DNA of 63,525 bases, the filler included, from Sphaeroforma arctica JP610 (Eukaryota): assembly GCF_001186125.1 (NCBI RefSeq). It is 4 parts of 2 records of this genome, joined end to end, with 100 filler letters (N's around TTAATTAATTAA, not from the genome) between each part and the next. Parts side by side here need not be neighbours in the genome. Positions count along the whole stretch, not along the records: positions 39,502 to 48,945 come from NW_014040547.1; 3 more parts are not named here. One strand, given 5' to 3'. This document shows, piece after piece, positions 47,533-48,006 of the stretch. Both the position numbers and the translations under genes were made by a program. Below the pieces are notes generated by a model. It saw nothing but the letters and a program-made list of their open reading frames with translations. It ran no database searches and was not told where the DNA came from. How positions within the stretch are numbered: position 1 is the first letter of the stretch; each line of letters opens with the position of its first letter.

Positions 47533-48006
47533 ATGTCCCCTACGGGGGATGGTGAAGGGTCCCTCCCCGGAACCCGGGAACTCGTCCTGTCCCTTCGGGG
47601 TTCCGTAGGGACCCTCCTACATCTTCGATATCCCCAAAAGGGGCTACCCCAATTAGCCACAACTAGGAGAACTCCTACTGAGGCTCTGTCAGCGATCCTG
47701 CCTCCGGCCCACAATGGCTATGTGGGTTATGAACTAGATCTAGACCGGAGTGAAATTTATATTACCTATTTGTATGTGAAAGAGGGGCTAAGGGGCACTG
47801 GATTGGCTACCAATCAGCTATTTTGCCTCCAGCTTCAGGCTGTCCAAGTAATAGGAGGGTTTAAATACGTCCGGGGCTTTATAGAGGACGACAATAGTGC
47901 TTGCATCAGAACTGCAAGGAATTTTGGAATGTATGAGGTTTCATCAACATACTTAGGAGGTAGACCGGCCCATCTATGAGAAAAATTAATATATATAAAT
48001 TGTTAG
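47533..48006 (+). CDS. GNAT-family acetyltransferase-like ORF (C-terminal core; the N-terminus is made of repeats)
   Basis: GYVGY...IYITYLYVKEGLRGTGLAT (motif A, RGxGxA)...DNSACIRTARNFGM. If TGA=Trp it extends to HLWEKLIYINC* at 48006. Confidence 0.65.

Follow-up and report, generated by a model that had tools for sequence, protein, structure and literature searches.

The question raised by this locus is what an acetyltransferase-like reading frame is doing directly upstream of a mitochondrial cox3 gene, and whether it belongs there. The frame occupies positions 47533-48006 of the 63,525-nt stretch of DNA analyzed, which we call the window. On balance, we favor the reading that the high-copy mitochondrial original carries a GNAT-like frame upstream of cox3, that this would be a laterally acquired acetyltransferase now likely dispensable and eroding, and that the copy in the window is a nuclear one (NUMT) and damaged. 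Under translation table 4, the frame runs through 157 codons without a stop and contains a single TGA, at codon 149, and its 3' end lies 44 nt before a same-strand ATG at 48051. From that ATG, the translation matches the Pfam COX3 family with an E value of 1.5e-27, and an alignment to PDB sequences agrees. The coordinates, the single TGA and the spacing had been given in an earlier note on this DNA, and all are borne out. Within the frame, the profiles and contigs delimit a GNAT-like coding core of about 120 codons (47633-47994, plus strand), which is a single-copy segment of the high-copy DNA and stays open in every haplotype observed.

The island that contains the frame lies on a contig of 1.5 kb, flanked by a gap of 515 N on one side and a 100-nt gap on the other. 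On the 3' side of the frame, it runs through the 5' part of cox3 (48051-48385, plus strand, supported by Pfam COX3, the PDB alignment and the contigs), then a repeat, then a 27-codon fragment of cob and then (TA)n. The part from 48386 to 48770 is a low-depth mosaic covered by one contig of sequencing run X1 (48356-48770); it comprises filler sequence, the hairpin repeat (48516-48622) and the cob fragment (48630-48710), leading into the (TA)n. No structured RNA, intron or tRNA was detected at the locus, including by Rfam. The cob fragment has low-depth cover only. Its GRILRY carries Arg at a place occupied by Trp in cytochrome b structures, and the fragment may be older or further decayed than the piece of cox3. 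For cox3 48051-48299, relatives are at 48-51% and no database relative exceeds 51% among 97 candidates. The absence of a closer one is a weak hint that the mitogenome is not annotated in the searched collection.

The rest of the window is nuclear and intron-rich. Across the scaffold gap from the NUMT is an internal exon of phospholipase C gamma encoding a PH domain (49252-49391, plus strand; PLCγ2, E 1e-4). The island is probably in an intron of that gene, with gaps on both flanks, because this first PLC exon found matches only from about residue 67. No match to PLC was obtained from the piece preceding the 515-N gap. The phospholipase C gamma gene extends over 49252-62000 on the plus strand with PH, EF-hand, PI-PLC-X, SH2 and later PH-like exons; its first exons were not located. 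A phospholipase C gamma bearing SH2 domains suggests that the host is a holozoan, conceivably an ichthyosporean. On the minus strand at 37404-40038, there is a eukaryotic gene, split by introns, whose family, the hydrophobic-domain family TIGR00341/TIGR00271, is mostly prokaryotic. Three identical 100-nt fillers (28264-28363, 39402-39501 and 48946-49045, each 44 N, TTAATTAATTAA, 44 N) are read as assembly linkers. They are taken as gaps inside a scaffold because one of them separates two in-order exons of the TIGR00341-like gene.

Where the frame resides can be read from sequencing depth. Part of the stretch is present in 20 of the 24 sequencing runs listed, from 8 studies, and 7 runs from 6 studies were compared; the run contigs come without a recorded library type. 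Contigs from runs presumed to be RNA also cover the ORF, but as they do not demonstrate a transcript, they were left out of the argument. In X1, a single contig spans 47608-48131 at a depth of 9,249, and the cox3 contigs have depths of 9,917-10,259. The frame is therefore at about 1:1 copy number with an intact-looking cox3 and physically linked to a standard mitochondrial gene. The X1 contig carrying the window's cox3-cob junction, which shows no differences to the window, has a depth of 25.5. The ratio of the depth of the ORF-cox3 DNA to that of the window-specific junction is 363 in X1 and 35-64 in X12 but falls to 3-6.5 in X3. In four of four runs, the ORF is joined to cox3 on one contig, and these include X17 (organism B), which has zero cover over the window-specific junction. 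It is because of these high-depth bridging contigs, in X17 as elsewhere, that the ORF-cox3 neighborhood is assigned to the mitochondrion. In a second set of runs, three of four have the whole core on one contig. A place beside cox3 in high-copy (mtDNA) reads had been set beforehand as the check on a mitochondrial location, and that is where the frame is found.

The window copy itself is a NUMT. Compared with the high-copy contigs, it has 13 substitutions and lacks 1 nt and, in cox3 at about 48300, another 54 nt; its cox3 ends at 48385. It is thus a diverged, rearranged copy at nuclear depth, running into (TA)n. The cox3-hairpin-cob arrangement, which the earlier note had described, is seen only at the low depth of the X1 junction contig; it therefore belongs to the NUMT mosaic, and the mitochondrial gene order is not established by it. 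That junction is also a precedent for the idea that nuclear or bacterial DNA was joined to cox3 only when the NUMT formed, being such a join in the same island. The ORF-cox3 junction, however, is at high depth in all four runs, even in the one without cover of the window junction, and an origin of the ORF by such a join is largely refuted and hardly credible.

Within the mitochondrion, the frame could in principle reside on a plasmid or other separate high-copy element, off the main mitochondrial genome, as the evidence consists of individual contigs. Amoebidium, a relative of animals, has fragmented mtDNA, which we count in favor of this placement; the size and low coding share of that mtDNA are given in PMC7027106. 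Against it is the physical join to cox3, and no polymerase, integrase or intron feature was seen with Rfam. We regard such an element as very improbable. The earlier note had offered the mitogenome or a plasmid or mobile element as the carrier. The first part stands, as cox3-linked high-copy DNA, and a plasmid or mobile element is not needed because the depth of the ORF is about 1:1 with that of intact cox3.

As read in cox3, the genetic code of this DNA is one in which TGA specifies Trp. The code had been said to rest on a single codon in the ORF, but cox3 has three TGA codons which fall on conserved Trp sites in the PDB alignment, and for that reason the mitochondrial code is not in doubt. 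The TGA of the ORF (47977-47979, plus strand), in the middle of the predicted last strand (residues 113-119 of a structural model described below), is likely to be read as Trp as well, and no difference is listed there in any of the seven runs. The read-through is suggested by a stop shared five codons later together with the terminal-strand pattern of known GNATs. The high-copy haplotype of organisms A and C ends W-E-K-L-L-stop at codon 154, the stop being a TAA (47992-47994, plus strand) that is TAT in the window. X17 ends W-E-K-L-F-stop with TAA at the same codon, after hand reading through its 5-nt insertion. Length changes among the haplotypes come directly after this shared stop codon. 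Of 18 bacterial GNATs, 4 end h-h-K-x-stop, like the HLWEKLL of the ORF. The earlier note had argued for read-through from the ending AHLWEKLIYINC. Read-through still looks right, for another reason, the stop of the high-copy haplotypes at codon 154, and that ending (also IYINC) falls away, since it is confined to the window copy and arises from three A/T changes there.

We consider it very probable, judging from sequence comparison, that the ORF is of GNAT ancestry. The consensus of GNAT motif A, the acetyl-CoA-binding motif, is strand β4 followed by R/Q-x-x-G-x-G/A. In the ORF, ITYLYV..GLRGTGLA aligns with it, and the predicted β4 plus motif A (ITYLYVKEGLRGTGLAT; 47761-47811, plus strand) carries nearly all of the profile score. 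GNAT is the top match in Pfam (E 0.021; PF00583 at 15.6 bits, below the curated cut-off of 20.7), in PHROGs (E 0.045) and among PDB sequences (E 0.45), and both of two matches among plasmid records are GNATs (E 2). There is also a weak match to the short GNAT family PF14542. The top NCBIfam match is the AAC(3)-I family (NF033083, E 0.0015), at 18.8 bits or less than one tenth of the cut-off of 200; membership in AAC(3)-I is rejected on that score. These library matches all share motif A and so are not independent of each other. A match to a GNAT profile had been named beforehand as a check on the identification; one was obtained, with the motifs present and the scores weak and below the curated Pfam and NCBIfam cut-offs.

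For comparison with a shuffled background, a profile was built from Bacillus GNATs. Of 28 loci, one with an internal stop was omitted, and 18 of the remaining 27 gave usable ORFs. With this profile, the ORF ranks first of 360 ORFs in the window, at 6.5 bits, and the runner-up has 5.7. The core reaches 7.2, whereas the highest value among the 1,447 shuffles that received a score, out of 2,000, is 4.7. Global hhalign brings motif A, β5 and the N...FG helix into register, scoring 10.2 against 9.8 for the best of 150 shuffles, with a probability of only 0.6%. A composite motif pattern made by hand was dropped; it matched none of the 18 known GNATs and missed the ORF too. An unguided single-sequence AlphaFold model has a pLDDT of 37 and no GNAT match. 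A model steered by 15 GNAT rows has a pLDDT of 77 and matches the GNAT fold, with its β4-α3-β5-α4-β6 arrangement; as the steering makes this circular, it speaks for compatibility only. As regards the N-terminal β1-α1-α2 region of GNATs, residues 1-28 have low pLDDT in the steered model, and the haplotypes have three different 5' ends.

The sub-threshold scores and the failure of the unguided model to resemble a GNAT are what one would see if the frame had opened by chance in a spacer rich in GC and hairpins, one lucky motif giving it its GNAT look; the same can be said of the lack of homologs in 1.84 billion representatives and of the folding of the 5' part into hairpins. Several features argue the other way. 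The ORF outscores every shuffle that received a score and every other ORF of the window, and motif A is followed in the right order by β5, the N...FG helix and a terminal h-K-x-L-stop. The core is a single-copy segment and not a dispersed repeat, and its frame has no stops, against four to nine in each of the other five frames; a chance opening over 120 codons has P of about 0.008. We judge a chance frame to be quite unlikely.

Descent of the frame from a GNAT gene being preferred, we asked where its relatives are. There was no close homolog among 29 candidates at E 0.01, and none among 135 longer candidates at E 10. The sole match among the 1.84 billion representatives was the translation of a tandem repeat, and it was rejected. 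Metagenome, viral and prokaryote contigs contained no relatives of the ORF, and neither did phages, 401 genomes of one bacterial phylum or PADLOC. Because no relative was found in the collections searched, the presumed lateral origin comes without an identified donor. The nearest matches, which are weak, are two Alteromonas plasmid proteins (L001 21-1184 and L002 240-1097), in which a short GNAT-like module is apparently duplicated.

The GC hairpins that the earlier note described around the ORF are present. A cluster of nested GC-rich hairpin repeats at 47417-47632, recognized by repetition, folding and depth, is dispersed in the high-copy DNA and supplies the window ATG (47533) and codons 1-33. 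It includes a 66-nt repeat at 47417 and 47564 (91% alike), and the hairpin folds have z of about -2.0 to -2.4. The 5' third of the core likewise folds into hairpins (z -2.4). In X1, the summed depth of the hairpin repeats is 59,000-461,000, compared with 9,249 for the single-copy part, which suggests a very repeat-rich mitogenome with nested, polymorphic insertions. In that run, the repeats at 47417-47632 and 48516-48622 attain summed depths as high as about 50 times that of single-copy mitochondrial DNA.

The start at 47533 does not survive this comparison. It is the repeat-borne ATG of a decayed nuclear copy, and the high-copy contigs have other letters upstream of 47608 or 47633. In the haplotype found in runs X18-X20, hand reading puts the window ATG out of frame and another repeat-borne ATG, five codons upstream, in frame. 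The ATG at 47549-47551 (plus strand), out of frame in the window, is in frame in that haplotype by hand reading of the contig's loose end before 47608. The predicted product is about 133 aa, with two unlisted substitutions in 47608-47637 making the hand reading uncertain. In X17, the letters differ before 47633, and a GTG apparently replaces the window's ATG. Thus, three versions of the gene have three N-termini, with a candidate start in each.

The haplotypes also differ inside the core. In X17, an 18-nt in-frame deletion, placed by the tool at 47855, removes KYVRGF (47863-47880, plus strand), which is most of predicted strand β5 (residues 79-85 of the model). This is the sole indel inside the core; the others lie just before and after it. 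Between X17 and organisms A and C, there are four non-synonymous substitutions (two in codon 117, one in codon 123 and, after hand realignment, one in codon 153) and one synonymous, over 273 and 87 sites, respectively. Position 47799, near X17 contig ends, is omitted from this count. X17 has no listed difference in cox3 48051-48385. Comparing 4/342 in the ORF with 0/335 in cox3 gives a Fisher p of 0.12, the counts being too few to exclude selection. On these tiny counts, no purifying signal is seen. Every haplotype is free of stops and frameshifts in the core, the stop codon is common to them and motif A is intact.

These data bear on whether the gene is alive. In organisms A and C, it might be a functional mitochondrial acetyltransferase under selection, namely a short GNAT of about 133 aa that starts from a hairpin-supplied ATG, with only the X17 lineage losing it. 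This would account for a frame open in all haplotypes, an internal indel that keeps the frame, the shared stop at codon 154, an intact motif A and a sequence diverged beyond detection from any donor with its motifs still in order. Short GNATs do exist, as the PF14542 match and an Alteromonas GNAT aligning over residues 5-93 at 35% indicate. The substitutions carry no purifying signal, however, the start lies in a mobile repeat and varies between haplotypes, and residues 1-28 of the model are poorly predicted. We hold a working enzyme to be possible but doubtful. A gene that is dispensable and eroding is the likely state.

For the favored reading of a laterally acquired and now decaying gene, the following course of events can be proposed. 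A foreign GNAT gene would have entered a repeat-rich mitochondrial genome and persisted there for so long that every close relative was lost and TGA came to serve for Trp in its last strand. The gene would have been transcribed with or beside cox3 and translated on mitoribosomes. The product would acetylate an amine acceptor with matrix acetyl-CoA as the donor; our best guess for the acceptor is a small molecule, a substrate not being predictable from sequence. Hairpin elements would later have remodeled the 5' end, and one lineage, that of X17, would have lost strand β5; the gene would now be dispensable in at least one lineage. A piece of the mtDNA would have entered the nucleus, become joined to fragments of cob and of repeats, and drifted by about 2%. 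A bolder version, which we think unlikely, is that a relative of animals independently recruited a minimal foreign GNAT, recoded it with TGA as Trp and expressed it ahead of cox3 from hairpin-supplied starts, acetylating a matrix amine such as a mitoribosome-targeting antibiotic from neighboring bacteria.

Mitochondrial genomes rarely acquire enzymes without a role in respiration, and the acetyltransferase examples in the literature covered all come from ascomycete fungi. If the reading is true, the likely holozoan case would suggest an independent gain, and also that matrix acetyl-CoA chemistry repeatedly favors or tolerates such genes. An intact haplotype, a β5-deleted haplotype and a nuclear fossil form a natural series for the study of function. 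If the ORF is a mere relic, the value is modest, being an unannotated accessory ORF and hairpin elements that rewrite a gene start. A possible nuclear origin of the fungal mitochondrial N-acetyltransferase genes was reportedly raised by Wai et al. in 2019. In the literature covered, which left subscription papers, book chapters and supplements outside its scope, there was no report of a mitochondrially encoded acetyltransferase in a holozoan, and by titles and abstract openings, none outside fungi. In the main text of PMC7027106 and PMC4558845, the word "acetyl" does not occur, and the accessible portions of PMC6140425 and PMC4342544 had nothing useful on the question. An unlabeled ORF in a deposited mitogenome could be the same gene.

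Among known systems, the closest in kind are the N-acetyltransferase ORFs of ascomycete mitogenomes, which are intronic or free-standing according to PMC11277600, PMC11404375, PMC7902536, PMC5626475 and PMC8393795. Examples of nat1 are Stemphylium lycopersici orf217 and those of Annulohypoxylon stygium and Dematophora necatrix (PMC5626475, PMC11277600, PMC11404375). Mitochondrial N-acetyltransferases are already known, then, from ascomycetes, and none was found for holozoans in the searched literature. Like our ORF, nat1 is described in those texts as an acetyltransferase-domain ORF in mtDNA, sometimes free-standing by a cox gene, patchy in distribution and of putative function. Unlike nat1, the ORF is in a host that is likely a holozoan and not a fungus, would encode 120-133 aa rather than 217, and has no intron detected. 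General database searches gave no sequence link between the two, which are compared here by their descriptions. With the GNAT superfamily (PF00583), the ORF shares motif A, β5, an N-x-x-(A/C) helix ending in FG and a terminal strand, in that order, but it scores far under the family cut-offs, and its N-terminal part is short or hairpin-replaced. The window copy resembles other NUMTs in being a diverged mosaic at low depth, in which pieces of cox3, cob and repeats lie rearranged among nuclear microsatellites; its only oddity is that it exposes an accessory mitochondrial ORF. The repeats, finally, are like the mobile GC-rich hairpin elements of mitochondria (double-hairpin and repetitive hairpin-forming elements) in having short GC-rich stems and in being dispersed, nested and polymorphic between haplotypes. 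What sets the repeats at this locus apart is that the 5' end of a reading frame is being rewritten by them.
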